Part shown: positions 537-44,982 of the stretch, one piece after another
Layout: each line of letters starts with the position of its first letter
How positions within the stretch are numbered: position 1 is the first letter of the stretch
From: a bacterium
Lineage (GTDB): Bacteria; Joyebacterota; Joyebacteria; Joyebacterales; Joyebacteraceae
Assembly (NCBI GenBank): GCA_029990205.1
Contig: JAPEKQ010000004.1
Coordinates: 5,109 to 69,108 of the forward strand
Length of the DNA: 64,000 nucleotides
Reading direction: 5' to 3'
Notes under the pieces: generated by a model
What the model saw: only the letters and a program-made list of their open reading frames with translations
Told to the model about the DNA's origin: nothing
Database searches by the model: none
Translations under genes and position numbers: made by a program

Positions 537-3500
537 CTACTTCAGGAGCGTCATCTTGTGCGAACCGCGATACTCGGGCGTCTCCATCGTGCAGAAGTAG
601 ACGCCGCTGCCCACGGACTCGCCGTACTCGTTCGTCCCGTTCCACACCACGGTGTGGCGGCCGGGCTCGACCACGCCATCGACCAGCGTCGTCACAACGC
701 GACCCGCCACGTCGAAGACGCGAATCGTCACGCGCGACTCGCTCGGCAGGTGATAGCCGACCGTCGTCACCGGGTTGAACGGGTTCGGGGTGTTCCGGAC
801 GAGCTTGAAACTCGCGGGGATGCCCTCGTAGCTGAGGCCCTCAAGGTCTGCCGTCAGCTCGTCGTTGGCCGCACCGCGGAGCGTGGCCGACGAGAAGTCG
901 ACCGTGTACGCCTCGTCCACGATCTGGAAGGTGAGCACCGCAACGTCACCCGAGCCGCCGATCGTCACGTCCGTGCCGAGCACGGCCAGATCGATCTGCG
1001 TACTGCGGGAGGTCGCGTCGCTCCAGAAGAACACATCGGCCACCGGCGCACTCATCTCGTCGCTCAGACCGGCCGCAATGAACTCAAGACCGTCAAACTC
1101 GAGTTCGGTTGAGAGTCCCTTGATCTCACCGAGGTTGCCCTCGAGACGGAGAGCCAGACTCAGCACACCATCACTCGAGCGATCGGCCTCGTTCAGAGCC
1201 AGTGCCAGTCCGCCGACACTCGGCTCGGCCAGGAACGGCACGATCCGCGGAGCGACAACGTCGTAGTTCATCGCGAAGATCATGAGATCTTCAAAGCTTA
1301 CGATACCGTCAGGAACAGGAACGCCCACCCGGCTATTGTCGTCGGTCGGGCCGACGTTGCACTCGGGCTCCCAACCAAGACCGCCCGTGCTCACGCCGTA
1401 TGTACCGCCCAAGATGTTGATGTCTGCGTCGTTGACACGGCCGTTGTAGCCACCAACACCTCCACCGAGCGCGCCAGCGACATCGCCCAACCAGTAGTTC
1501 GTGCACCGGTCACCGGTCCCGGCAGGCCCGTAGTTGCCAGCCTTATCACGTGCGAAGACACCGTAGTAAAGGATGCTCCGCTCACTGCCATCCGACGCGT
1601 AGGTGGCGCCATAGCTCCCCCCGGTGACGTTCTCGTCGACGAGGTCGCCATCACCCGCATCCGTCGGGTACGCTGGCGTGCCAGCCAGAGGGTACGTCGG
1701 GTATCCGGCGTCACCCCACGCGTTGCTCCTGAGCACGTACTCGTGGAAGTTGGCATCGTACGTCGTCGGACTGTCGGTCCATGTCAGGTCGGCCTTGTTG
1801 TGACCTGGAGCCGCGGCAAGGTCCGTCACAGCCACGGGCAGCGTGTTGTCCACGTTGACTGTGATCTCGTCGTACGACGTGTTCCCGAGGAGGTCGGTCA
1901 CCGTGACTCTGACAACCTGGGCCCCATCGGCACCAAGATCGGCGTCATCGAGGTTCCACGTCGCCGTGCCGGTCGCGTAAGTAGACGGCGCCACAGCAGT
2001 ACCGCCACCATCCAACAGCGTCGACAGGTTCGCCACGACCGTCACATCGTCGAGGTCTCCACATGCGTCCGTGACCGTCGCCTCGATCACAAGGTCGTTG
2101 CCGTCCCTTGCCCAGTTATCGAAGTACGGATTGTCAGGATTATCGACCGACAGCGTCGCGACAGCGGGAACCTCGGTATCGACCTCGATGGAAGCCCCAC
2201 TGGCATAGACACCCGACAGCGGCTGGTTGGCGTTGTCGCGGAAGAGGACACTCGTGATGCTGATATCGTCGCTCCCGCAACCCGCGGCGCTCAGATCGAT
2301 CGTGAAGAGCGTGGCGGGACCGGTAACGCCAGCCTGGTTTCCAAGCAACGTCCAGTCAACGGTGTGCGAAGCCGTGGTGCTGCCAACGCCGATATCACCA
2401 TAGTGCGTGAAGAAATCGTTGCCTGCTACGCCAGGGAAGATATCTCCAATGGCTACACCGTCCATCGACACATCGGCACCCCACGTGAAGGTGACCGAGA
2501 CCCCATAGATGAGGCCTGACGCCCCACCAAGGTAGTCGACAGATATCGTTTCGTCATCGTCGGTGTCGTTGAGCTCGATGTCATCCGGAACGCAGACGAT
2601 GTTCTCGCTGCCGGCCTTGCCGATCCACGGATCGAAGTCGACGAAGTCCGAAACCTCGCAGCCGAGACCACCCGTGTTGCTCGAGTGATACGGACCGGTC
2701 GCGTCGCCCCACCAGTTGCCCTCGGCGTCAACAGCTACTCCGTCATCGTTCCTGACGCCGTAGAGGTCTCCGAGCAGGCTGTTGTAGCTGAGGGACACAT
2801 CAGTGCCGGCAGGCAGGCCGCCATAGGATGCGCCGATGATATCGTAAACGCTGAGTGCGTGGTCGAAGCCCTTGACCGCGTTGCTGAGGATATCGATGTC
2901 CAGGTCATGGGCCCACGTGTAGCTATCGGCATAGTGCGAGATCTTCATGCCGGCCGCAGCCATTGTCCCGGCACCACCGGTGCCGCCCCCATCGACGCCA
3001 TTGCGAGCCACGGTTGTGTTGTAGAACCCGTCGCCGCCGACAGTGAACCCGATGCCGTACATGGCATCGGCGTAGGGAGCGCCTGTGAACGTCATCACGT
3101 TATCGGTCACGGAGATGTCGCACGCGAGGAGCGTCGCGTCGTAGGTGCGCAGATCGATCATCCCGACATACGCCCCAACATCTGTGTCCTGCGTGAAGGT
3201 GTTGTTGTTGATATCGAGGCCGTCGATGGAGTAGTCCTCCATGCCGTTCAGCCCGAAGATGAACCGGATCGCTGCGCTCCACCCCGTGTTCGTGAAGGTG
3301 TTGCCGCTGATGACGAAGTTCTCCACGGTCGAGTTGGCGCCGTAGTTCCATACGTACACGCCGCGCCCGTACTCCGTGAAGGTGTTGCCTGTCACGGAGA
3401 TGTTCCGCAGATCGAAGTCGTCGTCATCGCCATCGCCGATATACAGACCCGCGACGCAGGCGGTGTAGTCGGCCGGATCCACCGGGCCGAACGCGCACCC

Positions 3501-6065
3501 GGTCACGTCGAGGCCGTCGATGCCCGAACGAAGATAGATGCTCGTCCACATCTCGTTGAACGTGCAGTCCGTGATCGAGAAGTCACTCAGAGACAGGCTG
3601 TTGGGCGCGAAGATGCCGATGTTGCGCGTGTACACGCCAAGGGACGCAACAGACGCGTCAAACTCGCAGTCCGTGACCGTCAGACCGGCGAAGTCTCCCA
3701 TGAGGTGCACACCGTAGGTGTTCGGACCTGCGCCCGCGCCGAGGTTCGGGAAGTTCACCCGGGTCAGCGTCAGGTCGGCGCTCGAGTTGACCTGGATGCC
3801 CTCGGTCAACTCAGCCGGGTCGCTGATGGCCAGGTCCGAGATCGTGACGTCGTCAGCCGTCACATCGATGACCGGGTAGGCGCCAGGCTCGATCAGCGTC
3901 GCTGTCTCACCGGCCCCGATCAGACTGAGGGACTTGTCGATGAGGAGCTGCTCGGGGTAGGTACCGGCTGCCACATTGATCGTTGCGCCGGAGGTCGCTG
4001 CGTCGATCGCGTCCTGGATCGAGTCCTTCGTACCGAGCGGCATGGGCGACGTTCCCGGAGGCGCCGCGAACCACGGGCTGTAGTCCACGTTGTCCGTGAC
4101 CGCGTCACCAGCGCGTCCGGTTGTCGGACCGTCGGCGTCGTCCCACCAGTTGAGTTCAGCGTCGATGACCAACCCGTTGGTCGGCGTCCCGACGACCTGC
4201 ACTCCGTAATGTGCGAGAGGGTTGCCGAGGTGGCCATTGCCGTAGATGGCGTTGCCGGAACCGTTGATATCCGTGGCGCAGTCGTAGCAGGCATACTGGC
4301 CGCTAGAGGGAGGACTCTCGAACTGCGGGTTCCAGTAGTTCCCCTCGAGGTCCAGCATGATCCCGTTCCAGCCGTTGTCGTAGATCGCATTGTCATCGAT
4401 GAAGATGCTGTCGTTCTTGGGTCCCATGTAGATGCCGCACTTCTGATTGTCGTGGATGTCGTTGCCCACGATGGTCAGGTTGACAGGACCGTATGCGGTC
4501 AGCGGGTCGGAGACCTTGTCCGACGAGCCTCTGATCAGCTGGATGCCGTGTCCGTACTTCAGGAAGTCCGGGTCGTCACCCGGCAGACCGGTGCATCCGT
4601 AGATGTCGTTGTTGCTGATAACAAGGTCGGCGTAACCGCCGGCGGTCTCGATTCCCGCCCTGTGCGAACCGTAGATCTCGTTGTCGTCGATGACGGTTCC
4701 CGCCATAGACGCGGGGCCGGGGGCCCCGTAGGCGTAGTACGACGTCCACAGGAAGACGTTGTCGCCGTTGCCCTTGCAGTCGAAGATCTTGTTGTGTGAG
4801 AAGCTGCTGCTCTCGATACCGTCGTCACCGTACGGATGGTTCACGAGGTAGAGCCCCATGCGACCGTGTGTCCCGTCCTGGCTCACAACGTTCGTATTGG
4901 GTCCGACGATGTTGTTCTCGAACACGATGTTCTCGATGACGCCGGTGTGAGCGTAGACGCGGACGAGAGACGTGTTCTTGTTCGCCTCCGCCGCCAGCTC
5001 CTGCACGATGAAGCCCTTGAATGTCACGTCGCTCACATCGTAGATGTCGACGATGGCCGTGTAGCTTCCGGCCGGGTCGGGATGGCTGATGATCGTCTCA
5101 ACGCCCGGATCCCATGCGTAGTCTGCAGGTACCGTGTAGCCGTTCTTGTTGAGCGCGTGCGTCGCTCCGAGCATCGTCACCGGCTTCTCAACGAGGATCT
5201 CCTCGACATAGTGGCCGGCCGCGACATTGACGGTCCCGCCGTCCAGCACGGCATCGACGCCGTTCTGGATCAGGTCGAAGTGCGTGATGCCCCAGCCGGG
5301 AGTCGCCGACGTGAAGTCATCATCGACCCACACCTCGGGCGGAGCCGCAGGCGTCAGCGTCACCTGGTAGATGCCGCCGTCCCCAGCGATGATCTCGACA
5401 TCGAAGCCGCCGAACTGAAGCGGGATAGCGTCGCTGCCCCACGTCCAGTCCATGTCCCACCAGCCTGCGCCGGCGCCATGCGCGTAGCAGTCACCATCGT
5501 TGGCGTCCGGATCCGTCGGAAGCGTCCCCGTGTACGAGCCGACATCGTTCTCCGACGCGTACATGTTCGTCCAGTCCATCAGGCCGGACATCGGCGTTCC
5601 CTGATGCACGGACTTGTACTGAAGAGCCCAGGTCGTCCCGGTCAGCACGAGCTCGTAGTTGTAGTAGTCCGCGACATCCGGGTTCCAGAAGCCGCCCCAG
5701 GGCGGGCTCCCGGTTCCATCGTCCGGATAACCATCGTGAGGGTCCGACGTGCCGTACCCGATGGTGTACGTGTCGGTTCCGGAGCAGTTCCACGCACCCG
5801 TCCCGTAATACCCCTCGACGAATGCGCAACCGCCCGTCTTGGCATAGACATCGAATCCCCCGGCGGTGGAAATGGCTTCACCACCGCCGCCGACCGCGTA
5901 CCACGAGCCGGCTACGGCGTCGATCGTTCCTGTGTAGACGCCACCACCGGCGTCCGTCAGTGTTCCCTCGAACTCCATCGTGCTGCTGCCAACGGAGTTG
6001 GCCGAAGCGGGCGCAGCGATGATGATCGAGAGAATCAGCGCGAGTACCAATGCACTGGTCCGCAT
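537..6065 (-). CDS. Giant secreted protein of 1842 aa with right-handed parallel beta-helix (pectate-lyase-like) repeats and a C-terminal T9SS sorting domain.
   Basis: Start moved to the internal ATG at 6065 (MRTSALVLALILSIIIAAPASA, signal peptide), preceded by AGGAGGAG. Many NxxTFT/ISGNTF/VTGNTF beta-helix turn motifs. The C-terminus PNPFNPVTTVGYHLPSESRVTIRVFDVAGRVVTTLVDG...GSGVYFCTME...K is a FlgD Ig-like / Por-secretion tail. Confidence 0.85.
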   Translation of the reverse strand: MRTSALVLALILSIIIAAPASANSVGSSTMEFEGTLTDAGGGVYTGTIDAVAGSWYAVGGGGEAISTAGGFDVYAKTGGCAFVEGYYGTGAWNCSGTDTYTIGYGTSDPHDGYPDDGTGSPPWGGFWNPDVADYYNYELVLTGTTWALQYKSVHQGTPMSGLMDWTNMYASENDVGSYTGTLPTDPDANDGDCYAHGAGAGWWDMDWTWGSDAIPLQFGGFDVEIIAGDGGIYQVTLTPAAPPEVWVDDDFTSATPGWGITHFDLIQNGVDAVLDGGTVNVAAGHYVEEILVEKPVTMLGATHALNKNGYTVPADYAWDPGVETIISHPDPAGSYTAIVDIYDVSDVTFKGFIVQELAAEANKNTSLVRVYAHTGVIENIVFENNIVGPNTNVVSQDGTHGRMGLYLVNHPYGDDGIESSSFSHNKIFDCKGNGDNVFLWTSYYAYGAPGPASMAGTVIDDNEIYGSHRAGIETAGGYADLVISNNDIYGCTGLPGDDPDFLKYGHGIQLIRGSSDKVSDPLTAYGPVNLTIVGNDIHDNQKCGIYMGPKNDSIFIDDNAIYDNGWNGIMLDLEGNYWNPQFESPPSSGQYACYDCATDINGSGNAIYGNGHLGNPLAHYGVQVVGTPTNGLVIDAELNWWDDADGPTTGRAGDAVTDNVDYSPWFAAPPGTSPMPLGTKDSIQDAIDAATSGATINVAAGTYPEQLLIDKSLSLIGAGETATLIEPGAYPVIDVTADDVTISDLAISDPAELTEGIQVNSSADLTLTRVNFPNLGAGAGPNTYGVHLMGDFAGLTVTDCEFDASVASLGVYTRNIGIFAPNSLSLSDFSITDCTFNEMWTSIYLRSGIDGLDVTGCAFGPVDPADYTACVAGLYIGDGDDDDFDLRNISVTGNTFTEYGRGVYVWNYGANSTVENFVISGNTFTNTGWSAAIRFIFGLNGMEDYSIDGLDINNNTFTQDTDVGAYVGMIDLRTYDATLLACDISVTDNVMTFTGAPYADAMYGIGFTVGGDGFYNTTVARNGVDGGGTGGAGTMAAAGMKISHYADSYTWAHDLDIDILSNAVKGFDHALSVYDIIGASYGGLPAGTDVSLSYNSLLGDLYGVRNDDGVAVDAEGNWWGDATGPYHSSNTGGLGCEVSDFVDFDPWIGKAGSENIVCVPDDIELNDTDDDETISVDYLGGASGLIYGVSVTFTWGADVSMDGVAIGDIFPGVAGNDFFTHYGDIGVGSTTASHTVDWTLLGNQAGVTGPATLFTIDLSAAGCGSDDISITSVLFRDNANQPLSGVYASGASIEVDTEVPAVATLSVDNPDNPYFDNWARDGNDLVIEATVTDACGDLDDVTVVANLSTLLDGGGTAVAPSTYATGTATWNLDDADLGADGAQVVRVTVTDLLGNTSYDEITVNVDNTLPVAVTDLAAAPGHNKADLTWTDSPTTYDANFHEYVLRSNAWGDAGYPTYPLAGTPAYPTDAGDGDLVDENVTGGSYGATYASDGSERSILYYGVFARDKAGNYGPAGTGDRCTNYWLGDVAGALGGGVGGYNGRVNDADINILGGTYGVSTGGLGWEPECNVGPTDDNSRVGVPVPDGIVSFEDLMIFAMNYDVVAPRIVPFLAEPSVGGLALALNEADRSSDGVLSLALRLEGNLGEIKGLSTELEFDGLEFIAAGLSDEMSAPVADVFFWSDATSRSTQIDLAVLGTDVTIGGSGDVAVLTFQIVDEAYTVDFSSATLRGAANDELTADLEGLSYEGIPASFKLVRNTPNPFNPVTTVGYHLPSESRVTIRVFDVAGRVVTTLVDGVVEPGRHTVVWNGTNEYGESVGSGVYFCTMETPEYRGSHKMTLLK

Positions 6066-6299
6066 GCTCTTCTCCTCCTGGGCATGTGCGAGTAACCTCG
6101 AATGACGCGACTGCAGCGGCCCGCTCGTGACGCTCACGCGTCGACCGCCTTGCACCTCCCGCAGTGCTCAGCTTGTCATCGCTCCTCCTTCGCCGCTCCG
6201 AAGTCGCTGAACTCCGCTCTTGACGGGCCAGCTCGGTGCGTGTACATTCCCGAAGCACAAGAGCGGACATGCTCACGCCTCACGGTGTGATGCAGCCCC

Positions 6300-6479
6300 G
6301 CTTCTTGGCCGGGCGGCTGGACTGGGTGCCAACCTATCCTCCAGTCGCCCTTGTTATCGTTTCCATGCTGTGTTCTGGATCTCTCTCCACGTCCGCGGCG
6401 TTCCCCATCCTCACTGCCCGCCCCCCCACCCAGCTGCGAGACTGGGCGGGAGAGGCAGGCGTTTCCCGAGGGAGGAAAC
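6300..6479 (-). promoter_or_regulatory. Conserved structured 5' leader, copy 1. This is the 5'-most roughly 180 nt of a roughly 415-nt 5' UTR of the giant gene. It is a candidate cis-regulatory RNA or sRNA.
   Basis: About 75% identical to 15282-15455. At the inferred 5' end there is a GUUUCC-ucccucg-GGAAAC hairpin (6461-6479 on plus). A second hairpin, CCCAG-cugcgaga-CUGGG, has two covarying pairs in the other copy. G-tracts (GGGUGGGGGGGCGGGCAG...GGGG) are conserved. Confidence 0.55.
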
Positions 6480-6485
6480 ACTGTC

Positions 6486-6514
6486 ATTATACTGCCCGTC
6501 GCGAGCTATGTCAA
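6486..6514 (-). promoter_or_regulatory. Perfect sigma70 consensus promoter TTGACA-17 bp-TATAAT, copy 1.
   Basis: The minus strand reads TTGACAtagctcgcgacgggcagTATAATgacagtG. The -35 box is at 6514..6509 and the -10 box at 6491..6486. An AT-rich region lies upstream and conserved ATGTGCTTGTC / TGCAGTTAG boxes sit 40-90 bp further upstream. Confidence 0.7.
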
Positions 6515-6640
6515 TATTGATTGAACCACCATGAAACTTCACTCACTACACTACAGACATCTAACTGCAATAGATGGACAAGCACATAGGATGCATTTTG
6601 TCTAGTTCGAACACCCTTACTGACTGACCACCAGACAAAG

Positions 6641-6671
6641 ACGCCGACCCCCGCCATGAAGGTAAGGGTCG
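6641..6671 (-). terminator. Terminator hairpin after the GH5 gene (GCCGACCC-15 nt loop-GGGTCGGC, followed by GUCUUUGUCU).
   Basis: 8-bp GC stem about 37 nt past the stop at 6708, followed by a U-rich stretch on the transcribed strand. Confidence 0.5.
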
Positions 6672-6707
6672 GCGCTATTCTGGGCGTGCTTCACGGCGCG
6701 CGAGTGC

Positions 6708-8407: not shown

Positions 8408-9019
8408 TTACCTGTACATCGCCTTGATCTGAGACCACGTGCTCGGAGCGACCGGCAGTGCCAGATCGCACTCGACGCTGATCCAGTCGAAGTACATCTG
8501 CCCGTAGGTGGACCAGCCGGACCAATGGCTCGCCGTGGAAACGAAGTAGAGCACACAGGGACCGCACATGCAGACGTCCTGAACCGTCGTGATGTGCCAC
8601 TGAAGCTCGGTGTTGAGCTCGTCGCCCGGATAGCTGTACACAAGCGTGCCCGGAGGTGAAGCGCCCATGTCGTAGACATAGAGATCGAACGCATCGACGG
8701 CCTGGCCTTCGAGATGCCTGAGCGTGATGCACCTCGGGTTGACATCGGGCTCCGTGCCGAAGTCGAGGAGGATGAGCGCCGCGATGTCGCCGTCTCCGAG
8801 CGACTCGGGACAGTCGATGCCCCGGCAGACCACAACGTCCCCGTACGGCCCCGGGGGATCGTGGTGATCACCGTACTGGACATCGCCCCAACCGACCATG
8901 TTGTGACCAAGCTCTGACGCAGGCACTCCAATGTCGACCATATCCATCACATCGGCCGACACTGGTACAACGACCACGGTAGCAAGCAATGCTATGAGGA
9001 TGGCGAGGAATCGTCTCAT
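8408..9019 (-). CDS. Small cysteine-rich secreted hypothetical protein (about 200 aa).
   Basis: Start at the ATG at 9019 (MRRFLAILIALLATVVVVPVSA) with a GGGAGGTG Shine-Dalgarno sequence. No recognisable domain. Confidence 0.6.
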   Translation of the reverse strand: MRRFLAILIALLATVVVVPVSADVMDMVDIGVPASELGHNMVGWGDVQYGDHHDPPGPYGDVVVCRGIDCPESLGDGDIAALILLDFGTEPDVNPRCITLRHLEGQAVDAFDLYVYDMGASPPGTLVYSYPGDELNTELQWHITTVQDVCMCGPCVLYFVSTASHWSGWSTYGQMYFDWISVECDLALPVAPSTWSQIKAMYR

Positions 9020-9073
9020 GACAACACCTCCCGTCTTCTCAACAGACCTGGCGGGGCGCACATGCGTGGGCCC

Positions 9074-9667
9074 CTACTCCTTCTCTCTCGACGACCATCC
9101 GGCGACGCCGACCACGTCTTCCGTGAGCATCTCGACCCCGAAGGCTTCCGCGTGGCCACTCACCTCCAGGAAGAGACTCTGCTCACCGCATTTCCCGTTG
9201 CCCTCGAGAAACACATCGGCCGCATCGACCTGCCGTTCGCTGACGAGCTTGCCGTCCGGGGTGAGAAGTCGGCACCGCGCGGTCGAGTTCGCGAGCTGCT
9301 GCTCGCGCCCCTTGGGGAGTGTTAGACGCACGATGACACCCCACTTCACGTCGTTCGATGTCACAACGATCTCCGCGGCCGCCACGCGCGGGGCAGGGTC
9401 CTCGACCGAGGTGGTCTGTACGCCGGCCATGTAGCGCGGATTCGGGTCGAACGGGCTCGCGAATCGAACCTTGACGGACCTGGGTATGCTGACGCCGACT
9501 CCCGCGGTAGCACTGAGAGGCTCGCCCGACGCCCACTCCTGGCCGATGCCGGGAAGGCAGACGAGGGTGACCGCCAGCATCGGCACCAGGAGGCCTGCGA
9601 GCGACCGCCGCCCACCGGGCCCAGCCCGAGTCCGGGACGGCATCCGCTGTCTGATACCACTGATCAT
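9074..9667 (-). CDS. Hypothetical secreted protein or lipoprotein (about 197 aa).
   Basis: An AAGGAGAG Shine-Dalgarno sequence lies 6 nt upstream of the ATG at 9667. The hydrophobic segment LAGLLVPMLAVTLVCLPG may be a lipobox. Confidence 0.55.
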   Translation of the reverse strand: MISGIRQRMPSRTRAGPGGRRSLAGLLVPMLAVTLVCLPGIGQEWASGEPLSATAGVGVSIPRSVKVRFASPFDPNPRYMAGVQTTSVEDPAPRVAAAEIVVTSNDVKWGVIVRLTLPKGREQQLANSTARCRLLTPDGKLVSERQVDAADVFLEGNGKCGEQSLFLEVSGHAEAFGVEMLTEDVVGVAGWSSREKE

Positions 9668-9722
9668 GTGCACCTCTCCTTCCGCTTGGCATCACCACCG
9701 GTCACTGCTGGTCGATGTCCTC

Positions 9723-11375
9723 TCACTCGAGGAGACCGGCGAGCTCCATCGGATCGATCATAGCGTGCGGCGTGACGAGAACGAGCATCTCGCTCTGCTC
9801 CCGCTCGATGGTCGTGTGTCCGAACAGCGCGCCAAGAACTGGGATGCGGCCGAGCAACGGGATACGGTTCTCCTTCGTACGTTCGAACTCCGAGAGCAAC
9901 CCGCCGATCAGGATCGACTCACCGTTCCCGACGCACGCCCGCGTCTCGATCTCTCGCACGCTCGTGACGGGCAGATCGTTCACGCCCGACGCGCGGACGT
10001 CGCTGACCTCAACGAAGATGTCGGTCGTGATGTCGGACGACTCGCCCACGTATGGCGTGATCCTGAGCGTGATCCCCGTCGCGATCTTCTGGAGCGTGTA
10101 GTAGGCATAGCTGACCGACCCGCTCAGCAGCGAGTAGTACGCCTCGGTCCCGACACGGATCCGTGCCTCCTGACCGTCGAGCGTGGCAAGGCGCGGGTTG
10201 GCGCGGACGTTCGCCGCCCCGTTCGCCTCGAGCGCCCGCACGGCGGCGCCGATGTTCGTGACAGCGTCGACGCCGTCCAGACCGGTATCGGTGAGCATCC
10301 CGATGAAGGACGAGTCGAGCATGGCCGGGGCGAGCTTGGCGAGACGGAACGTCGCGCCTCCTTCGCTCCCCAGGACCTCCCAGTCGATGCCCCACTCGCG
10401 CGTGACGTCGCTGTTCACCTCGACGACAAGCGCCTCGATGGTCACCTGACGAGGCGGTCGATCGATCGCCGCGACGTCCCGAAGGAACGCGCTCGTCACC
10501 TCCGGCGGCGCCGTCAGCGAGAGGATGTTCCCGCCGGCTGGGTCGACCCGCACGTACCGCTCGTACGACGGCGGCAACAGCCTCGCAATCTCCTCGGCCA
10601 GGAGGTGACGCGGTCGGATCTCGACGGTCGCAGCCAGCAACATCGACCCCGAGTCCCTCGGATCGGTGACGCCGACGAGGTAGTACCCGTCCATCCACCG
10701 ATACCCCAGCCCGAGCGGCACGGCCAGATGACTCAGACACTGCTCGAGCGGGACGTCGTCGAACTCCGCGGTGACCAGTCCCCGGACGCCCTTCGCCGCG
10801 AAGATGGGAATGCGGGTCTGCGCCGACACGTCTGCCAGTACCTGGAGGATATCGGTCTCGTAGAACATGTTGGTGACGCGCGCGTTCTCGCTGTCGTTGA
10901 CGCTTCCGGCGACCCCGGCGCCTGTCCCGGGCGTGCGGGCCGGACCGACCTCTGCCACGGAGGCCCTGCCGCACGCCACAGGCCGGTGCGCATCCGCGAT
11001 CGCGTCGAGTTCCATCCGACCGGGAAGCACCGACCACTTCCGGGGGTAGTTCTCCCGAAGCAGATGGAAGCTCAGCGCGGCCTTCGATGTATCACCGCCG
11101 GCCAGCTCGGCCTCGCCAAGGAGATAGAGCACATCGGGCATGACCCGGTACGGTGTGTTGTCCTCGAGGATCCCGCGCAGAAGCCTTGACGTCTCCGCGT
11201 AATCGCCCTGGCGATATCGCGACGCCGCGGCGCTGAGATCCGCCTCGACCGTCCCGCCGTGTCCCAGGAGCATCTCCGCCTCGTCGTGCAGCGGCGTCTG
11301 CGGAGCGCATCCCAGGAGGCAGGCGACCGCGAACACTGCGAGCGTGGAAGCTGTGTGTGTGCGCCGGGCATTCAT
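9723..11375 (-). CDS. Outer-membrane secretin of the PilQ/GspD family. It is a lipoprotein with an N-terminal TPR-like region and an STN domain.
   Basis: Lipobox ACLLGC. STN-like VTNMFYETDILQVLADVSAQTRIPI. Secretin C-domain motifs NPRLATLDGQEARIRVG, ITPYV, VREIETRACVGNGESILIGGL, ENRIPLLGRIPVLGALFG, LVTPHA. Confidence 0.85.
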   Translation of the reverse strand: MNARRTHTASTLAVFAVACLLGCAPQTPLHDEAEMLLGHGGTVEADLSAAASRYRQGDYAETSRLLRGILEDNTPYRVMPDVLYLLGEAELAGGDTSKAALSFHLLRENYPRKWSVLPGRMELDAIADAHRPVACGRASVAEVGPARTPGTGAGVAGSVNDSENARVTNMFYETDILQVLADVSAQTRIPIFAAKGVRGLVTAEFDDVPLEQCLSHLAVPLGLGYRWMDGYYLVGVTDPRDSGSMLLAATVEIRPRHLLAEEIARLLPPSYERYVRVDPAGGNILSLTAPPEVTSAFLRDVAAIDRPPRQVTIEALVVEVNSDVTREWGIDWEVLGSEGGATFRLAKLAPAMLDSSFIGMLTDTGLDGVDAVTNIGAAVRALEANGAANVRANPRLATLDGQEARIRVGTEAYYSLLSGSVSYAYYTLQKIATGITLRITPYVGESSDITTDIFVEVSDVRASGVNDLPVTSVREIETRACVGNGESILIGGLLSEFERTKENRIPLLGRIPVLGALFGHTTIEREQSEMLVLVTPHAMIDPMELAGLLE

Positions 11376-13003
11376 CGGAGTCCCTCCGGCACGACCTCAG
11401 TGCTCGTGAACGAGGCGTCCGCCGTGAGCGGGGCCTCCTCGTCTCCGTTCTGCTCGAGATCGACCTTGACCGTGAAGATGCCCTCGGCGACGAGCGGCAG
11501 TGACATCCGGAACTTCCTCTCGCCCCGCGGCATCACGCGCTCCCAGCTCTTCTTCCCGATGGCCATCTCGGCAACGAGATCGCCCTGCTCGGAGTGGAGC
11601 GATACGCGTCCGCGCACCTCGCCGACACCGTCGCCCTCGTTCGCGATCGTGAGCACGGCGCTCCCGGGATTCGACTCTGGGTGCGAACGGACAAGATCGA
11701 GACTCTCGACCCGGAGCGAGGCGCGACCTCCCCCTCTCGGCTTGATGATGATAAGGGCCCCGGCGTCGTAGACCGTCCGCCACTCGCCGGACTCCTCGTG
11801 AGCTCGCCCCACGAACCGCACACCTCGTGTCACCGTCTCGTCGAACTCAGCATCACGGTCCATGCTCACCGTGGCCCGGACGGCCGAGCTGACACGCGGC
11901 CCGACGACGAGCGAGTCCGGCGCAACCTCGACGGCCAGTCCATCTATGCGGGCCGGTGAATCGGCGTAGGTCCATCGTCCGTCGGCTTCCAGTCTCGCAT
12001 CGCCCACGACGACGTCGAGCCGAATCTCCTCGTCACCCATGTTGCTGACTCGAATCGGGACTGATCGCACGGCGCCTGGAGCGAGGTCGATCTCGTGAAC
12101 GGGCTGTTCTATCCAGAGATCGGTCCCGACCTCCGACTTCGCTCCGCTGACTTCCGCCGCTGACGTTGTTCGCTCCATTCCGGCCACTGAGAGGACGAAC
12201 TCGTTCCTCGACTCGCGCCGCTCACCCAGTTCGAGCCTCCCCACGGTTCGATATGTTCCGTGGACGAGCCGCGGCGCGTGCGCCCTGAGAGTGATGCTCT
12301 GTCCCGGATAGAGCTCGAACGGCCGACCGTCGCTCCGGTACGGCAGCTCGACTCGTTCGGGGAAGCCTCCCGACTCGGGGTACATCAGTACATCGCCACG
12401 GAGCTCGCTCACCCATACCCCGGTGTTCCGAACCTCGATGACCAGTTCGCGTCCGCCGTCCCTCGACCAGCCGAGCCCGATTCCCTCTATGCCGAGTTCC
12501 AGCGGTCCGCTCGACCGGACGCGCACGAGGACTTCGACGTTGACAGTCGGGACGACCGTCGCTGAGAGCTGGGCCGTGGGGCTGTCGGGACGGAGGTTGA
12601 TCACGAGAAACGCCGAGTACTCGCCGAACGCGTCCTCGGGAACACGAACCGTGACGGGCACGTCTCGCTGTTCGACTCCATCGAGCGCGAGTTCGGGCTC
12701 GACGACGATCCAGTCGGCGGCGGAGCGTGCACCCCCGCCGACCGCGATGGCCTCCTTGTGGCCGACCTGTGACTGTTTGAGATCCTGGATCGCGATGTCG
12801 AAGTGAGCGCGCCTGCCGGGCATGCTCCCGGCGATCCGGAAGCTCCCGTCCCAGGTCTGGCCCGGTGTCGCATCGGCTATGAGTTTGAGCGGTCCGATAC
12901 CAATGCCACCCTCGCGGACCTCTGCCTCCTGGGCGACGACGCCGGTCGAGAGCGCCGCGATCAGGAGCAGTACAAGGCAAAGAGAGAGATGGGATGACTT
13001 CAC
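11372..13003 (-). CDS. Secreted protein of 543 aa built from about four beta-sandwich repeat modules. Its stop overlaps the secretin start in an ATGA arrangement.
   Basis: GTG start with a strong AAGGAGGAGGG Shine-Dalgarno sequence. Signal peptide MKSSHLSLCLVLLLIAALSTGVVAQ. Internal repeats of about 130 aa. Function unknown. Confidence 0.65.
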   Translation of the reverse strand: MKSSHLSLCLVLLLIAALSTGVVAQEAEVREGGIGIGPLKLIADATPGQTWDGSFRIAGSMPGRRAHFDIAIQDLKQSQVGHKEAIAVGGGARSAADWIVVEPELALDGVEQRDVPVTVRVPEDAFGEYSAFLVINLRPDSPTAQLSATVVPTVNVEVLVRVRSSGPLELGIEGIGLGWSRDGGRELVIEVRNTGVWVSELRGDVLMYPESGGFPERVELPYRSDGRPFELYPGQSITLRAHAPRLVHGTYRTVGRLELGERRESRNEFVLSVAGMERTTSAAEVSGAKSEVGTDLWIEQPVHEIDLAPGAVRSVPIRVSNMGDEEIRLDVVVGDARLEADGRWTYADSPARIDGLAVEVAPDSLVVGPRVSSAVRATVSMDRDAEFDETVTRGVRFVGRAHEESGEWRTVYDAGALIIIKPRGGGRASLRVESLDLVRSHPESNPGSAVLTIANEGDGVGEVRGRVSLHSEQGDLVAEMAIGKKSWERVMPRGERKFRMSLPLVAEGIFTVKVDLEQNGDEEAPLTADASFTSTEVVPEGLR

Positions 13004-13039
13004 GATGACCCTCCTCCTTGGGAGTCCGCGAGAGAGGCG

Positions 13040-13069
13040 GGAGGCGCCGGGACGAAACCCGGCGCCTCC
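13040..13069 (-). terminator. Perfect 12-bp GC hairpin (GGAGGCGCCGGG-acgaaa-CCCGGCGCCTCC) between two genes.
   Basis: It lies between the stop at 13081 and the Shine-Dalgarno/GTG start of the repeat protein at 13003. It could be a terminator or an attenuator. Confidence 0.5.
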
Positions 13070-13080
13070 GGAACCTCCAC

Positions 13081-13815
13081 CTACGGACTCGTGAACAACA
13101 CATTCACCACCGTGCTGTAGTCGCCGCCCGCATCAAGCATCCCGTTACGGTGGATGCGGGCCAGGAACTTCATAGTACCCTCGACACCCGGGCAGAGCGG
13201 CCCGAGCACATAGTGTGTCGCCGGGGGCTCGCAGGGAATCGCCTGCTGCATGGGGTAGACGCCGTAGACCGGGTCGTTGTAGCCAAGCACGCCCGGACTG
13301 TCCAGATGCAGGTAGGTGCCCCAACCGTCGTTCGGGATCGTGCCCACGCCGGTCCAGACATCCTCCACCATCAGAGGAGCAGCGCACATCGTCAGCCAGG
13401 TCGGGATGTAGCAATCCCCGCAGTCCGGATCGACCGCGTGGAGGTCGCCGTTCACGGTGACATCCATCGACAGCGGATTGTTGGACCTGAAGAAGATCAC
13501 CGCGCCGTCGAATGACTCGTAGTACATGCCCATGTTGCTGGTGTAGTACCCACCGCCGGCCCAGGGGTTCAGCGGGCCCTTCCCGTCCGGGTCCGGACAG
13601 GCGGAGTAGCCGAGCCCCTCCAGCTGGGCGCAGTACCAGTCAGCGTTGTCGTCGAAGACGATGTCGACGTCCTGCCACTCGATCTGGACATAGCAGTTCA
13701 GCATGAGGTCGATCGTGATGTCACCGCTGGGGCTGCCGTCCCACACTGTGTCGTACGCCGCAGCCGAAAGCGTGAGCGCCACGACAGCCATGATTGCCAC
13801 GATAACGCGCAGCAT
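13081..13815 (-). CDS. Cysteine-rich secreted hypothetical protein (244 aa).
   Basis: ATG at 13815 (MLRVIVAIMAVVALTLSAAA) preceded by AAGGAGAG. No recognisable domain. Confidence 0.6.
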   Translation of the reverse strand: MLRVIVAIMAVVALTLSAAAYDTVWDGSPSGDITIDLMLNCYVQIEWQDVDIVFDDNADWYCAQLEGLGYSACPDPDGKGPLNPWAGGGYYTSNMGMYYESFDGAVIFFRSNNPLSMDVTVNGDLHAVDPDCGDCYIPTWLTMCAAPLMVEDVWTGVGTIPNDGWGTYLHLDSPGVLGYNDPVYGVYPMQQAIPCEPPATHYVLGPLCPGVEGTMKFLARIHRNGMLDAGGDYSTVVNVLFTSP

Positions 13816-14120
13816 GATAAGCTCTCCTTGAGGTTGCTCGTCGCACGCAACCCATTGGTCCGCCTCGGTCTCCATTCAGGGAAAGGGATGCGTCCTGTCA
13901 GGGTCTCGTCCCTTGCCGGGGGTGGCGGATCACCCCGGTTTCCCCGCCCGGCTCAGTCCTCGGGGAGCCGGTCCGTCTGTGCGCGGCCCGAGGCCGCGAC
14001 CAGCACGCCATGGCAGCTCCTTTCGACGCTCTGGATCCCGCACTGGCGGAGACCGCTCCCAGGAATACCGCTCCCGCCTCCACCGTTCCGAGATTGTCCA
14101 GACATGCGAAGGTCGCCGAC

Positions 14121-15155
14121 CTACTGCGGCGACCCGACCAGGTGTAGCTCGCTGATGTACTCGCCCGCGACATCGGTGACGGTCACCTCAAGCGCCATCC
14201 GGAATCTCGCGGAGAGAACACCCCGTTCATCGTATCCAGACATCAGACAATTGCTGTCGCCCACAAGGGTCCATGGACCGGGCTCCCCACCGGCGTCAAG
14301 GACCGCCCACTCGACTCGCTCAAGAGCGATCTGGTCCTCGTCGGAGACGAAGGGCGTCCCCTCGAGCAGCAGCACCCACTGCTCTTCGTTCGTCGCGACA
14401 ACGACCTCCAGGTCAGGCTCCACGTAGTACCGGCCTGACCCGGGTCCCGTTTCGATGTCGAACTCCGTCTCGGAGGTCATGACCATCGTGAGGGACCCGA
14501 CGTCCATGATCACTGGAACCGTCAGCCGCGGTCCGAAGGCGCTGCTGAGACTCGCGGCGCTACCAGTCACGACCCGCAGTGCGCCGGGGTGCTCGATCTC
14601 CGAGTAGTGGTCCTCGGGCAGGACAACGGGCGTGAGATGGAGAAGTCCCTGATAGAGACCCGCTTCGTCCGTCCACTCGGGACGCGCCTGCACTTCGAGC
14701 CACAGGTTCTCCGCGGGCGCAGGACCCTGCCCGCGGGCAACGATGACCCCACCAGCCATGCTCACGAACTCTCCGCCCGTATCCGCTGACCGCACCATCA
14801 GGCAACCACCGTCGATGGGTCCGCCAGGACCCGCGGTGGGCTCATACTCGACCCGGACCGCCCAGTTCGGGAGCGGCGACGCTACGCTGAATGCCAGCGA
14901 ACCCAGAAGAGCCGGCTGCACAGGAATCCCACCTTGGGGCGGCAGCACGACCTCATCGTCCAGAGACAGGAACTCCGCATCCGTCGTGATCCACACCATC
15001 CCACCCGACTGCACCGGCGTACCCGCCTGGGACGCGGGGTTCTCCTCCAACCCTCGAGCCGTACAGACTCCTGCCGCCACCAACACGAGGAAGAGCACCA
15101 CCAGGTGTCGACAGACACGTCTCAGCAGTGCTCTCATAGCAACGGTTCCAGACAT
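14121..15155 (-). CDS. Secreted hypothetical protein of about 344 aa, sitting behind the second copy of the promoter-leader module.
   Basis: Start set at the ATG at 15155 (MSGTVAMRALLRRVCRHLVVLFLVLVAAGVCTA) with a GGTGAGG Shine-Dalgarno-like sequence. ATG 15137 is an alternative. Confidence 0.55.
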   Translation of the reverse strand: MSGTVAMRALLRRVCRHLVVLFLVLVAAGVCTARGLEENPASQAGTPVQSGGMVWITTDAEFLSLDDEVVLPPQGGIPVQPALLGSLAFSVASPLPNWAVRVEYEPTAGPGGPIDGGCLMVRSADTGGEFVSMAGGVIVARGQGPAPAENLWLEVQARPEWTDEAGLYQGLLHLTPVVLPEDHYSEIEHPGALRVVTGSAASLSSAFGPRLTVPVIMDVGSLTMVMTSETEFDIETGPGSGRYYVEPDLEVVVATNEEQWVLLLEGTPFVSDEDQIALERVEWAVLDAGGEPGPWTLVGDSNCLMSGYDERGVLSARFRMALEVTVTDVAGEYISELHLVGSPQ

Positions 15156-15281
15156 ATTCCTCACCTTTCCCGCTTGCTCCGCTACCTCCATGCAATAATT
15201 CCACTTGCCTTCTCGGCTCCATGCAGGCACATTGTACGAACAAGGAGCGCGGCCCTGGTCCTTGCGGACCGGGTGAGCCAT

Positions 15282-15455
15282 GCTTCTGCCCGGGCGACTG
15301 GATGGCTGCGAATCCATCACCAGTCGCCCGCTTTTATGCTATCCGCATGTGATCGTGTTTCTCTCCACGCACGCGATGTTCCCTGCCCATCTTGCCCGCC
15401 CCCCGTCCGGCTGCGAGACCGGACGGAAGGGCAGGCGTTTCCCGAGGGAGGAAAC
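15282..15455 (-). promoter_or_regulatory. Conserved structured 5' leader, copy 2 (candidate cis-regulatory RNA).
   Basis: About 75% identical to 6300-6479. It has the same GUUUCC-ucccucg-GGAAAC hairpin (15437-15455). Its second hairpin, GUCCGG-cugcgaga-CCGGAC, differs from copy 1 at two base pairs, and both changes keep the pairing. Confidence 0.55.
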
Positions 15456-15461
15456 GGAGTC

Positions 15462-15490
15462 ATTATACTGCGTGACACCCGATATGTCAA
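15462..15490 (-). promoter_or_regulatory. Perfect sigma70 consensus promoter TTGACA-17-TATAAT, copy 2.
   Basis: The minus strand reads TTGACAtatcgggtgtcacgcagTATAATgactcc. An AT-rich tract and conserved boxes lie upstream. Confidence 0.7.
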
Positions 15491-15578
15491 TCTAGAAACA
15501 GTATATAATTATCAGTTCAACATTACATCCATCTAACTGCATACTATACATCTATATCGACAAGCACATCAGACATCG

Positions 15579-15596
15579 TTTGTGGAACGCCACAAA
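15579..15596 (-). terminator. Hairpin UUUGUGG-cguu-CCACAAA about 85 nt downstream of preA.
   Basis: 7-bp stem. An analogous UUUGUCU...AGACAAA hairpin sits at the equivalent position in copy 1 of the repeat module. Confidence 0.35.
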
Positions 15597-15680
15597 GAAG
15601 CCCGTTCACCCCCAGAACAGACAAATCGACCCCGACATTGTCTGTCGAGGCCGATCTGTGTGGCAGTCGCTGTGTGACTC

Positions 15681-39509: not shown

Positions 39510-42500
39510 TTACTTGATGACGACCACGGGGCGGTTGATCCGCTCGTAGGTCGGCTGCTGTTCGAATTTGGCTTCGACTCTCATGACGTAGATTCCATAC
39601 GGGACGACCTCACCGTGCATGTCGGTCCCGTCCCACGTGATCTGGTTCGGCGTCCTGCCGAGATACTCGGTCGCCTGGTGCCAGACGAGACGCCTGACGA
39701 GCTTGCCGGCCAGATCGTAGAACTCGATGTTGACGTGGTCGGCCTCGCGCGACAGGTAGAACGTGACGGTCATCTCGTCGTAGAGACCGTCACCGTTCGG
39801 GGAGAACGGGTTCGGCTCGGTCAGCACACCGGAGAGACCCGCGTCATCGTCGAATCCGAGCGCGTCCCAGTAGAACACGCCGAGTTCGCCGAGATCCTGC
39901 GTCTCCGTCGAGACGGTGTTCCCGCTCGGCGAGTTGGCCGCGCCGCTGAGGATCCACCGTTCCGTCAGTGTGTTCCATTCGAAGAGACCGAACTTCGCCT
40001 CCTCGAGCGAGCCGACGTCGTACTGCGGGTAGTGGAGAGCGACGGAGATGGGCGACGCTGCCGAGACCGGCGAGCCGCCGGACTCCAGCGTGATCTCACG
40101 CGCCGTCCCGAGGTACTCCATGTCGTCCCGGATGTTGCTGTCGTCGATCTCGATCGACGGAAGCGCTCTGACGATAACGTCCACGTCCGCTCGCTGCGAC
40201 AGATCGCCGTCGGTGAGCGTCACGACGGTGCCGTCCTGGAACACCAGATCGTAGCCCTCGCCGAGCGAAGTCGTGTCGGCGACCGTGATCGCCTGTTCCT
40301 CCGCCCACGGCTCCGGGATCGCGATCTCGAACGGGCCGGCCGTGATGTCGTTCTCATACTGCGAGGCGTCCATGGCCCGGATGCTCGCTGTGATAGCGCG
40401 CGCCTGGCCGGTGACGTTGAGCGTGAGCTCGTTCGTCGCGCTGACGATCTCGCTGCGCGAGACGGCCGCGGCCCAGATGTCGCCCTTGAGGTTGACCATG
40501 TCGACCGAGTGCTGCGCCGTGTCGCCGTAGGCCTCCCACAGGAATGTCGCCTCTTCGACGCCCGAGCCGACGTCCTCGATAGTCGTCCAGAAGACGGCGG
40601 GCGCCTCATCGAGCGCGATCCACGGCACGTGCTGAATCGTGCCCTCGGGGACAAAGCTCGTGATGACCGGCGGCGAGTAGTCCTCGGCAAAGCTCGCCTC
40701 GAGGACGCAGGCGACCATGTTGTTGTCGAACCGCTCCTGTGCCTCGTCGGTCGTGTAGTCGAGCATCTCCTCCTGCGTGCGGCCCGGCTCGTGCCCGGCG
40801 CCGCAGCTCACGGCCACGTCGATGATGTTCGCGTCGCGGTCACGGCCGTCCTCGCTGTCGGCCCCGCCGCCGAACTGCCACTGCTGCGTGTTGGCGTTGA
40901 TCCACCGGATGCCGCCGAGATTCTCATCGCTCGAGTCGCCGTCGTGCGAGGACAGGCAGACGATGACGTCCCATTCCAGGATGGCGCTCTCCAGATCGGC
41001 GCCGACATCGAACAGGTCGCGATGAACGCGGACATCGATCGTGTCGTCCTCGTAGTTGTTGCAGAACGAGATGTCACTGTCGTTCTTGTAGAGACCCCAG
41101 TTCGCCGAGGAGTTCGAGTCGTTCGAGATGACGAACCACTTGCCCCATCCCTCGACGGAGATGCCGTAGTCCCAGGCGTCGACGGTCGCGATGTCGGTGT
41201 TCCGGCTCGGGAACCCGTTGGTCGAACCGGCGCCTTCCTTGGCATCGATGTAGATGTCGAGCTTCTGGAGGTTCATGTCCGTGCGGTACTCGCTGTCGCA
41301 CGTCGCTTCGCTCGGGTTCGGCGCGCCCCAGTCGGCGGCGCCGTCATCGAGATGGCTCACAAGATCAGCGACCGTCGTACGGAACACGACGTAGTCACCA
41401 TCGATGAAGATCTCCTCGCGGATGATGTCGAACGAACCCTCGAAGAAGACCGTGTCCGTCGGATAGTGATAGTAGAGACCCTCGATCGGCGTGCCGTCCG
41501 CCGTACCGTCGTCGGTCTGGTTCGGACCGTGGTCGTCCCCCTCTTCGTCATCGAAGTCGCGGATGGCCACGGCCGGGTTGTTCACCGTCACGGTGATCGA
41601 ACCCGATGCCGGCCACACGTTCGTGGCGTCTCGCGCCGTGATCGTGACGGTCTGGTCGCCGTCCGAGGCGCCCGAGGTCAGGATCTCGGAGGCCGAGTAG
41701 GTCCCGTCGCCGGCGGTCACATCCGCTCCGGCGCCATCGTCGAGCATCCGGATGAGCTCGGTCCCGCCGATGGTCGACAGATCGAGGAACACATCCCCGA
41801 TGCCGCCGCCCGTATCGGTCACTTCGATGGTGTACGTCACGAGGTCACCGGGCGCGGCCGGTGTCGGCACGGCAAGGCCGCCCGCGACCGTCGGCGCGTC
41901 ACCCTCCTCCCGGACGACGTAGGTCGTGTAATTGCCGAGCGTCACCGGCGTCGTTGCGGTCTCCCACCACTCGCCGGTCTCGGGCACCATGTCGTGCGTG
42001 GCGTCGTGCGGCACCGAATCGAGCGCCGCGCGCTTCTCGCCGTCCGTCTCCTGGGTCAGGTAGATCTCGAGCCGCACGGTGTCGCCGGGCGACGCCTCGA
42101 TCACCGAGAGCGGCACCTGGACCACGGCCGTGGTCTCGGTCTTGTAGGTCAGTCCCTGCGACACACCGTTGACGCCCTCGGCCCAACCGATGCGCCACTC
42201 CTCGTTGTCGAAGTCGTAGTGCTCCCACTCGCTCCCGGTGTGGCGGCGGAGGTCGGAGTAATCGTCGGCCGCGTACTTGTACGTGAAGCAGTAGTCCGGC
42301 ACGTTCGTGTGCCCGTAGTTGACCGGGAAGCCGAAGGGATCGCTCGCCCCGCCGTTGGCGTCCGCGTGCGTCTCGAACAGCGTCATCAGATGGACGCCGT
42401 CCCAGTTCGAGTTGAACGTGAGCGTAACGGTGAGGTCGTCCTCGTCGTTCGTCACACTGAGGATGGTCAGGTCGACGCCCTCGAGGCTGTTGTGGTCCGG

Positions 42501-44840: not shown

Positions 44841-44982
44841 TCGAGACTCCTCAGACGGGCCGCCACGCACGGCGGCGATGCATCGAAACCGGAGGGGCGG
44901 AGCCACATGCGCCACCCCACTGGGGGATGTGGTGGCCCTCCTCCGGTCCTGCCGTTGCAGTGATTGTCATTTTGGTGGGAAA

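Follow-up and report, generated by a model that had tools for sequence, protein, structure and literature searches.

Two copies of a candidate sense/antisense leader cassette ahead of giant surface-protein and secretin genes in an uncultured bacterium

What kind of element is a promoter with a long leader that occurs twice in one stretch of bacterial DNA, ahead of unrelated genes, and keeps its base pairing while its sequence drifts? The window analysed here, 64,000 nucleotides (nt) of contig JAPEKQ010000004.1 (assembly GCA_029990205.1), holds two such modules on the minus strand, copy 1 at about 6675-6063 and copy 2 at about 15656-15153, and a preliminary description had taken them for a promoter-leader module with a functional RNA structure. 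We propose, with a probability of roughly 0.6, that they are paralogues, two copies of one regulatory cassette that is specific to this lineage, works with sense and antisense RNA and serves giant surface-protein and secretin operons. On the evidence of the sequence, the most conserved part of the leader is probably explained by an antisense RNA gene and not by a single-strand RNA motif; the earlier interpretation recognised the RNA helix and missed a predicted convergent promoter and a candidate terminator on the opposite strand.

Covarying helices of the leader

Each unit measures about 0.5 kb, and the interval 15270-15600 originally assigned to the second copy lies inside the unit and covers only part of it. 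In a pairwise alignment of 485 columns, the two modules share 79% identity, near the 75% first estimated, and drift with pairing kept was borne out for hairpin 2, described below. A 26-nt block, GTTTCCTCCCTCGGGAAACGCCTGCC, which includes a 19-nt hairpin (hairpin 1), occurs exactly twice in the 64 kb, with 0 occurrences expected in shuffles. The genes flanking the two sites are unrelated and the module is the only long repeat family linking them, in agreement with the earlier view that no segmental duplication is involved. As all flanking genes are carried by the minus strand, the plus-strand strings in which the hairpins had been given must be reverse-complemented to read the RNA; both named hairpins, with their sequences and at their reported positions, were found by direct reading of the window.

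Hairpin 2, the core of a helix that we call P2, reads cccag-CTGCGAGA-ctggg at 6429-6446 and gtccgg-CTGCGAGA-ccggac at 15405-15424, with identical loops, and its two compensatory stem changes, c-g to t-a and a-t to g-c, are real. We aligned 12 full-length leaders with MAFFT, without fitting them to a structure, and found the 13 pairs of P2 to be 96.7% paired; sliding the 3' partners by 1-3 columns lowers this figure to 47-69%. Both bases have changed with pairing kept in three pairs (twice C-G/U-A, once G-C/A-U), each time in more than one sub-lineage, and 7 further pairs vary solely by wobble-compatible changes. The 37 G·U cells of the helix would be A·C on the opposite strand, and P2 therefore folds on the gene-sense RNA. 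The step from compensatory change to RNA structure, first made from two copies, thus holds for this helix among further homologues as well, and the loop UCUCGCAG is kept in 10 of the 12 sequences, one UUUCGCAG variant counted in.

The core common to all members of the family, divergent ones included, consists of the hairpin P3 (GGGCGACUGG..CCAGUCGCCC), the long hairpin P4/P5 and two sequence blocks, AAUAUAC and GUCAAG. Double changes occur in 8/8 pairs of P4 and 6/6 pairs of P5 when the alignment is fitted to the model; the core helices are 93.5% paired against 32-47% in slid controls, 14 of 26 pairs are doubly changed, and 0 of 500 shuffles match. A covariance model built from 12 sequences recognises divergent relatives at E-values of 1e-11 to 1e-17 and, in the window, finds the two copies only. 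The 10-bp base of P3 is invariant, which makes covariation uninformative there; its single variant, A·C if read as sense and G·U if read as antisense, counts for the antisense unit.

The same holds for hairpin 1, invariant in 12 homologues except for one G-U: covariation says nothing for or against its pairing. An equally conserved long-range partner competes with the local stem. The 19-nt hairpin is indeed identical in both copies; the G-runs, described as identical too, differ by a one-base indel, copy 1 having 7 G and copy 2 having 6. RNAalifold and single-sequence folds favour the long-range helix P1, in which the 5' strand GUUUCCUCCC pairs with distal GGGnGGRRRC; all 15 changes in the distal strand, at four positions opposite U, are exchanges of A and G and hence compatible with pairing. 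In the minimum-energy folds of both whole leaders (6066-6480; 15156-15456), the CU-rich 5' end UUUCCUCC pairs with the Shine-Dalgarno (SD) region of the main open reading frame (ORF) 300-400 nt downstream, a pairing in which both partners are constrained and covariation is therefore uninformative. Whether the partner is local, that of P1 or the SD region, the 5' end of the leader is base-paired in every fold; folds of whole leaders and of single domains gave z-scores of -2.1 to -4.5.

A predicted second promoter facing the first

The preliminary description had read the module as a promoter with a transcribed leader, and this prediction stands, with perfect sigma-70 promoters ahead of both leaders that are conserved across all full-length homologues; in a promoter scan of both copies, 0.3-0.4 promoter-like sites are expected by chance. 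From promoter geometry, the predicted +1 is the first G of hairpin 1 (GUUUCC), and the leaders span ~415 nt in copy 1 and ~300 nt in copy 2 from the promoter to the SD and ATG on the coding strand.

Read on the opposite strand, the two invariant blocks of the core, AAUAUAC and GUCAAG, spell TTGAC(A/G/T)-N17-(T/C)AnnTT in 19/19 distinct homologues, the spacer being N16 once. The two hexamers carry 1.7 and 1.5 bits of information per position and the unconserved spacer 0.48, and what is invariant, TTGAC, -11A and -7T, corresponds to a sigma-70 promoter. Scan scores for the antisense site are 9-11/12, with 0.0-0.3 sites expected by chance, and for two homologues, L018 and L025, the scan gives exactly two sites, the sense promoter and the convergent one, where 0.0-0.1 are expected. 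The order on the antisense strand is promoter, P4/P5 complement, P3 complement and T-rich tail, and the predicted transcripts, of 88-104 nt, contain two stem-loops and a tail in 19/19. The complement of P3, our terminator candidate, has a GC-rich stem of 10-11 bp and folds cleanly, and the tails resemble the imperfect terminator tails of neighbouring genes. On the sense strand, an A-rich run that is conserved ahead of P3 is explained by the position of the antisense tail behind the P3 complement.

That both RNAs are made, in which direction they would regulate and how the 5' hairpin may bear on stability is what we infer from these elements. In sense order, the cassette would comprise the terminator of the upstream gene, the consensus sigma-70 promoter, a leader with a paired 5' end (hairpin 1 or P1), P2, the core of P3 and P4/P5, and the ribosome-binding site. 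The second promoter, inside the leader on the opposite strand and facing the first, would make an antisense RNA of 90-105 nt, consisting of the complement of P4/P5 followed by that of P3, the latter acting with a U-rich tail as terminator. By analogy with plasmid countertranscripts and 5' stabiliser hairpins, the paired 5' end and P2 would protect a highly transcribed mRNA, and the countertranscript would pair with ~100 nt of the leader, beginning at complementary hairpin loops; pairing and convergent transcription could then tune the fate of the mRNA or the translation of surface and secretion genes.

At the 5' edge of each unit lies a GC-rich hairpin (6633-6675; 15612-15656) that is likely the terminator of the upstream gene: in the alignment, its arms covary among homologues (CGAC/GTCG, TGGC/GTCA, TGAC/GTCA) and a T-rich tail always comes next. 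A different hairpin, TTTGTGG..CCACAAA in copy 2 and TTTGTCT..AGACAAA in copy 1, had been put forward as the 3' hairpin of the upstream gene, in the same place in both copies. Those strings exist, but their 3' arms do not occupy equivalent positions and homologues do not keep the pairing; the TTTGTCT of copy 1 belongs to the separate GC-rich hairpin, as its U-tract. The features of both copies are collected in Table 1.

Table 1. Positions of cassette features in the window, in the order of the sense RNA (a dot marks features without an assigned strand).
Feature	Copy	Positions	Strand	Remarks
Likely intrinsic terminator of upstream GH5-like gene	1	6633-6675	-	5' edge of copy 1
Likely intrinsic terminator of upstream dihydroorotate-dehydrogenase-like gene	2	15612-15656	-	GC-rich hairpin and TTGTCTGTTCTGG tail; 5' edge of copy 2
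Sense promoter	1	6486-6514	-	TTGACA-N17-TATAAT, 12/12
Sense promoter	2	15462-15490	-	TTGACA-N17-TATAAT, 12/12; predicted start G15455
Hairpin 1	1	6461-6479	-	direct reading
Hairpin 1	2	15437-15455	-	GUUUCC-UCCCUCG-GGAAAC at predicted mRNA 5' end; contains anti-SD-like CCUCC
P2	1	6421-6453	-	core 6429-6446
P2	2	15399-15429	-	core 15405-15424, loop UCUCGCAG; extended by pairing of CU-rich 5' strand with G-run
Conserved CGUGGAGAG block between P2 and P3	2	15359-15369	-	leader alignment
P3 hairpin	1	6311-6358	+	hairpin 6311-6350 and TTGTTATC tail; predicted antisense terminator
P3 hairpin	2	15292-15337	+	GGGCGACTGG..CCAGTCGCCC (15292-15329) and GCTTTTAT tail; predicted antisense terminator; forms in sense leader too
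P4/P5	1	6258-6307	.	long hairpin, sense-strand GUGA tetraloop
P4/P5	2	15242-15287	.	long hairpin, sense-strand GCAA tetraloop; 5' stem-loop of predicted antisense RNA
Predicted cis-antisense small RNA	1	6255-6358	+	~104 nt; folding free energy (dG) -58.9, z -6.5, vs sense -48.6, z -3.2
Predicted cis-antisense small RNA	2	15240-15338	+	~98 nt, two stem-loops and U-rich tail; dG -55.0, z -4.5
Antisense promoter	1	6220-6248	+	TTGACG-N17-TACATT, 9/12; promoter scan finds site
Antisense promoter	2	15205-15233	+	TTGCCT-N17-CACATT, degenerate, 7/12; orthologues TTGACA-N17-CACATT or TATATT
Type-A leader 3' part	1	6063-6188	-	conserved SD and ATG of a mini-ORF (6168-6188), then real SD and ATG (6065) of 1842-aa protein
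SD AGGUGAGG and ATG (15155-15153) of 344-aa gene	2	15153-15166	-	GAGAGGUG..AUG conserved in orthologues

Weighing the explanations

Several observations weigh against a cassette with a functional antisense RNA. Both start sites and the 3' end of the antisense RNA are predictions from sequence, the antisense promoter of copy 2 in the window is weak (TTGCCT/CACATT, 7/12), and the U-tails are imperfect, with 4-6 T in 8, a simple terminator scan leaving P3 unflagged. The invariance of the P3 base is unexplained by a plain terminator role, and that of hairpin 1 by a plain stabiliser role. The folding free energies are neutral between the strands, the antisense being favoured in 12/19 with a mean difference of -0.9 kcal/mol, and the counts of G·U and A·C in P4/P5 pick no strand, so that neither measure decides on which strand P3-P5 are selected. 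In 9/12 sequences, the P5 loop of the sense strand is of GNRA type, a point in favour of selection on the sense fold as well, and both strands may be under selection. Finally, the family comes from a narrow clade (effective sequence number 2.1), and some of the conservation may therefore be inheritance.

A rival explanation is a leader that acts on the sense strand only, a structured 5' untranslated region through which a ligand, a protein or a fold switch would control translation or stability, with the promoter match on the opposite strand unused. P2 is sense-specific by its G·U pairs, the P5 tetraloops are of sense-strand GNRA type, the invariant 5' strand GUUUCCUCCC could pair locally with GGGAAAC, with distal GGGnGGRRRC or with the main-ORF SD, a second complement of the P4 3' strand lies downstream, and the motif UCGCAG stands in two sense loops. 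Such a leader would, however, leave unexplained why the invariant blocks match TTGAC/TAnnTT at a fixed 17-nt spacing around an unconserved spacer in 19/19 homologues, and why an A-rich run precedes P3; the distance from core to SD ranges from 5 to ~190 nt, the downstream alternative pairing is uncompensated in one homologue (L005), and no Rfam riboswitch or leader family matches. We consider this explanation unlikely, if one to be taken seriously. It is improbable, too, that the antisense RNA is the sole selected product and acts in trans, hairpins 1 and 2 being mere stabilisers of the mRNA. The minimal relatives do consist of little beyond an antisense unit beside a promoter, the shape of two hairpins and a tail is typical of small RNAs, and the copy-2 loop CUGCGA complements the hairpin-2 loops of both leaders, but the unit always lies within the 5' leader of a secreted-protein gene and never alone, and the paralogous copies have diverged in P4/P5, as cis-specific pairs would.

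Selection might also act on the DNA, on a dispersed repeat, a mobile promoter cassette or palindromic operators, with the hairpins incidental: the cassette precedes unrelated genes, P3 and hairpin 1 are as invariant in sequence as protein-binding sites, and ahead of the sense promoter there is a palindrome, CATAGTATG. Compensatory changes and G·U pairs specific to one strand point instead to selection on RNA pairing, each copy keeps its synteny with its own gene among orthologous loci, the cassette has no terminal repeats, target duplications or transposase, the window holds only the 2 copies in its 64 kb, and neither plasmid nor viral relatives turned up in the collections searched, so that we regard a DNA-level element as very improbable. 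Least credible of all is a regulatory RNA G-quadruplex, which the preliminary description had suggested for the G-runs and for which most homologues do have, by a sequence rule, at least four tracts of three or more G within ~35 nt. Opposite each of these tracts stands a conserved pyrimidine-rich partner: the main run, which forms the 3' side of the outer P2, faces columns 29-34, where all changes are exchanges of C and U, and the distal tracts pair with the invariant 5' GUUUCCUCCC. As the CU-rich strand varies in this pairing-compatible manner only, a duplex suffices and a quadruplex is unnecessary to explain the conservation; the 5' duplex domain is stable, at -51 to -53 kcal/mol (z -3.2 to -4.5), and the run length itself is not constant between the window copies.

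The sense/antisense cassette could have a reach beyond its own leader. The loop of hairpin 2 (6434-6441; 15411-15418) holds UCGCAG, the complement of the antisense loop CUGCGA of copy 2 (plus strand, 15306-15311); the same UCGCAG is also the sense P3 loop of type-B leaders (AUUCGCAG) and is kept in 10/12 homologues. It could be a kissing site in trans or a shared protein site. One might imagine a network in which the antisense RNA of the secretin leader kisses the UCGCAG loops of hairpin 2 in all cassette mRNAs, or in which a dedicated protein reads hairpin 1, the P3 base and the UCGCAG loops, although we think this a long shot. If it were true, several giant surface proteins would be coupled to the assembly of their own secretion apparatus, and a new post-transcriptional regulon would exist in a phylum that has no cultured member.

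A further observation concerns the 3' strand of P4, which has a second partner at or just before GUCAAG (6258-6270 with 6213-6225 in copy 1, with equivalents in L001 and L074), of sequence CCGCUCUUG/CAAGAGCGG in type A and CCCGGCUC/GGGCCGGG in L001. This pairing ("P6") may be an alternative fold that works as a switch; it is present in several sequences and uncompensated in L005. Among other functions considered for the core, the segment CGCUCUU, which resembles boxA of nut/rrn antitermination sites, was dropped, the segment being the paired 3' strand of P4 that varies with its partner. GGA loops of the CsrA type do not fit the loops observed, and plus-strand ORFs that cross P3 are interrupted through loop-length differences of 18-21 nt.

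Relatives, genomic setting and known systems

Besides the two window copies, 17 further distinct homologues were collected from metagenome-assembled genomes (MAGs) and metagenomes. When one genome of each GTDB species was scanned for the 19-mer, 6 true loci in four MAGs of uncultured bacteria and two chance matches came up, and an independent metagenome scan anchored on the P3 base added ~13 more loci, full-length copies among them, along with the divergent relatives L018/L042, L061, L038, L058, L069 and L071; about 45 of 63 metagenome pattern matches were chance occurrences in coding DNA. One contig, L063, carries both cassette types 9 kb apart, like the window. The minimal relatives (L018, L061, L038) have a sense promoter, ~25 nt and then the antisense unit, and because they are without hairpins 1 and 2, both hairpins are an addition of the window's sub-clade. 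A search by way of the 344-aa protein behind copy 2 recovers orthologous loci with the same synteny: in L074, whose orthologue is 61% identical, the core is kept and the 5' domain is different, and in L076 and L077, at 52% identity, recognisable similarity is lost, and neither the core nor the antisense promoter is present. Proteins annotated as Candidatus Eisenbacteria share 75-77% identity with the pyruvate-phosphate dikinase encoded in the window, and the cassette belongs to a narrow clade of uncultured bacteria, probably of that group. No family member was found in the plasmid collections searched or in the viral collections, where 4 pattern matches were chance hairpins. Rfam 15 (4227 models) has no match in the 64-kb window at the gathering threshold, and an E-value search of both copies (E<=10) returned sub-threshold chance matches only (E 1.2-9.8).

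Small RNAs made from their own promoter on the strand opposite an mRNA leader are well known from plasmids, among them CopA/CopT of R1 and RNAI of ColE1, countertranscripts of the same general design. A close parallel is RNAII of pMV158, a small RNA with its own promoter, stem-loops and an intrinsic terminator, which is complementary to the mRNA leader upstream of the translation start (PMC4485353). With these countertranscripts (~50-110 nt), the predicted antisense RNA shares an opposite-strand promoter in the leader, stem-loops, a candidate terminator and full complementarity. Plasmid countertranscripts sit at replication genes, whereas the cassette is chromosomal, stands at giant surface-protein and secretin operons, has no plasmid relatives in the collections searched and adds sense-only helices (hairpin 1, P2) to the leader. 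Judged by this likeness, the cassette would work in the manner of a countertranscript system and is not a member of a plasmid family, since setting, targets and sequence differ.

Convergent promoters with an antisense RNA are also found in RNA-OUT/RNA-IN of IS10 and in prgQ/prgX of pCF10. The facing promoters, ~110-225 nt apart in the cassette, and a predicted structured antisense RNA overlapping the 5' region of the mRNA recall these systems, and both RNA pairing and transcriptional interference would be possible; the cassette differs in its perfect-consensus sense promoter, in having neither a transposase nor a conjugation setting, and in an overlap placed 20-230 nt past the mRNA start instead of across the start codon. 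A hairpin at the predicted 5' terminus of the mRNA, on a long leader ahead of an abundant envelope protein's gene, recalls the 5'-terminal stabiliser stem-loop of ompA and the long leaders of S-layer genes. The cassette hairpin is set apart by its invariance, its alternative long-range partner and a start that is predicted, and it has no sequence similarity to them. Base pairing of the 5' terminus protects against RNase E (Bouvet & Belasco 1992; Arnold et al. 1998; both as listed in the review PMC3997798). Riboswitches and leaders in Rfam are similar in being conserved, multi-helix 5' untranslated regions with covariation and GNRA loops; the cassette matches none of their models and goes with no consistent metabolic gene class, and its "single-stranded" blocks fit an opposite promoter better. 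It is thus absent from Rfam and would be a familiar kind of control, a structured leader with a cis-antisense RNA, not a new principle.

To our knowledge, Candidatus Eisenbacteria have no cultured representative and their gene regulation is unstudied. The cassette is the first concrete regulatory element proposed for them, it stands ahead of genes (for giant beta-helix, BNR-like and SGNH proteins and in the secretin operon) that are the best candidates for building the cell surface, and it is directly testable, as the consensus promoters should work with E. coli RNA polymerase. Two cautions are of more general use: a promoter on the opposite strand can show up in an RNA alignment as invariant blocks that seem single-stranded, and covariation alone cannot tell which strand of a helix is the functional RNA.

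The setting of the cassette is chromosomal, with housekeeping genes nearby. Copy 1 lies between a GH5-like gene and the gene of a secreted, 1842-aa beta-helix protein (537-6065) with a C-terminal domain of FlgD_ig/type IX secretion system type, and copy 2 between a gene like those of dihydroorotate or dihydropyrimidine dehydrogenases and that of a 344-aa protein with an N-terminal hydrophobic helix (14121-15155), which is followed by genes of 264 aa and 543 aa and then by a secretin-TPR protein. Across the family, the genes behind cassettes are either large secreted or envelope proteins (beta-helix, BNR-like, SGNH-LamG, >1280 aa) or the first gene of the secretin operon. The operon behind copy 2 (8408-15155, minus strand), with the 344-aa transmembrane (TM) and beta-sandwich protein, two proteins without a Pfam match (~250 and 542 aa) and a secretin with TPR, is conserved in synteny on four other contigs (L074, L076, L077, L078) and looks like an uncharacterised secretin-based apparatus. 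The 344-aa protein has no Pfam match and just 15 homologues among 5.8 billion proteins; its AlphaFold model is poor (predicted local distance difference test score 54), with a TM helix and a beta-sandwich whose fold matches are generic Ig-like ones (TM-score ~0.25).

Two other giant loci lie in the window. A protein of 1801 aa (39510-44915, minus strand) has glucodextranase-like SLH-like, Big_1 and FlgD_ig/CHU_C domains, and the covariance model finds no cassette upstream of its gene. Behind the beta-helix gene of copy 1, a downstream giant paralogue starts at ~385, after an intergenic region of 150 nt that has a terminator-like hairpin and no cassette; the N-terminal coding regions of these adjacent genes (42-341 and 5721-6020) are 76% identical and make them tandem paralogues.

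Minor features were seen at both ends of the leader. About 110 nt ahead of the real start, type-A leaders (L003, L008, L025, L063, L005) keep a strong SD and the ATG of a mini-ORF, GGAGGAGCGAUG, of 1-22 codons and unconserved sequence (MTS*, MAS*, MTV*, M*), whose stop in L063a overlaps the main ATG as AUGA; it may be a start-stop or coupling ORF. Short leader ORFs after GGAGAG are unconserved, and a 24-codon plus-strand ORF upstream of the sense promoter was set aside, its ATG being lost in L025. The palindrome mentioned above, in full (G/A)CATAGTATG(C/T), lies ~95 nt upstream of the sense -35 in a conserved AT-rich stretch, at about 15540-15552 in copy 2; it is present in L025, L008, L063 and L005 as well and half deleted in copy 1. 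Its arms change jointly (GCATA..TATGC versus ACATA..TATGT), and it may be a transcription-factor site.

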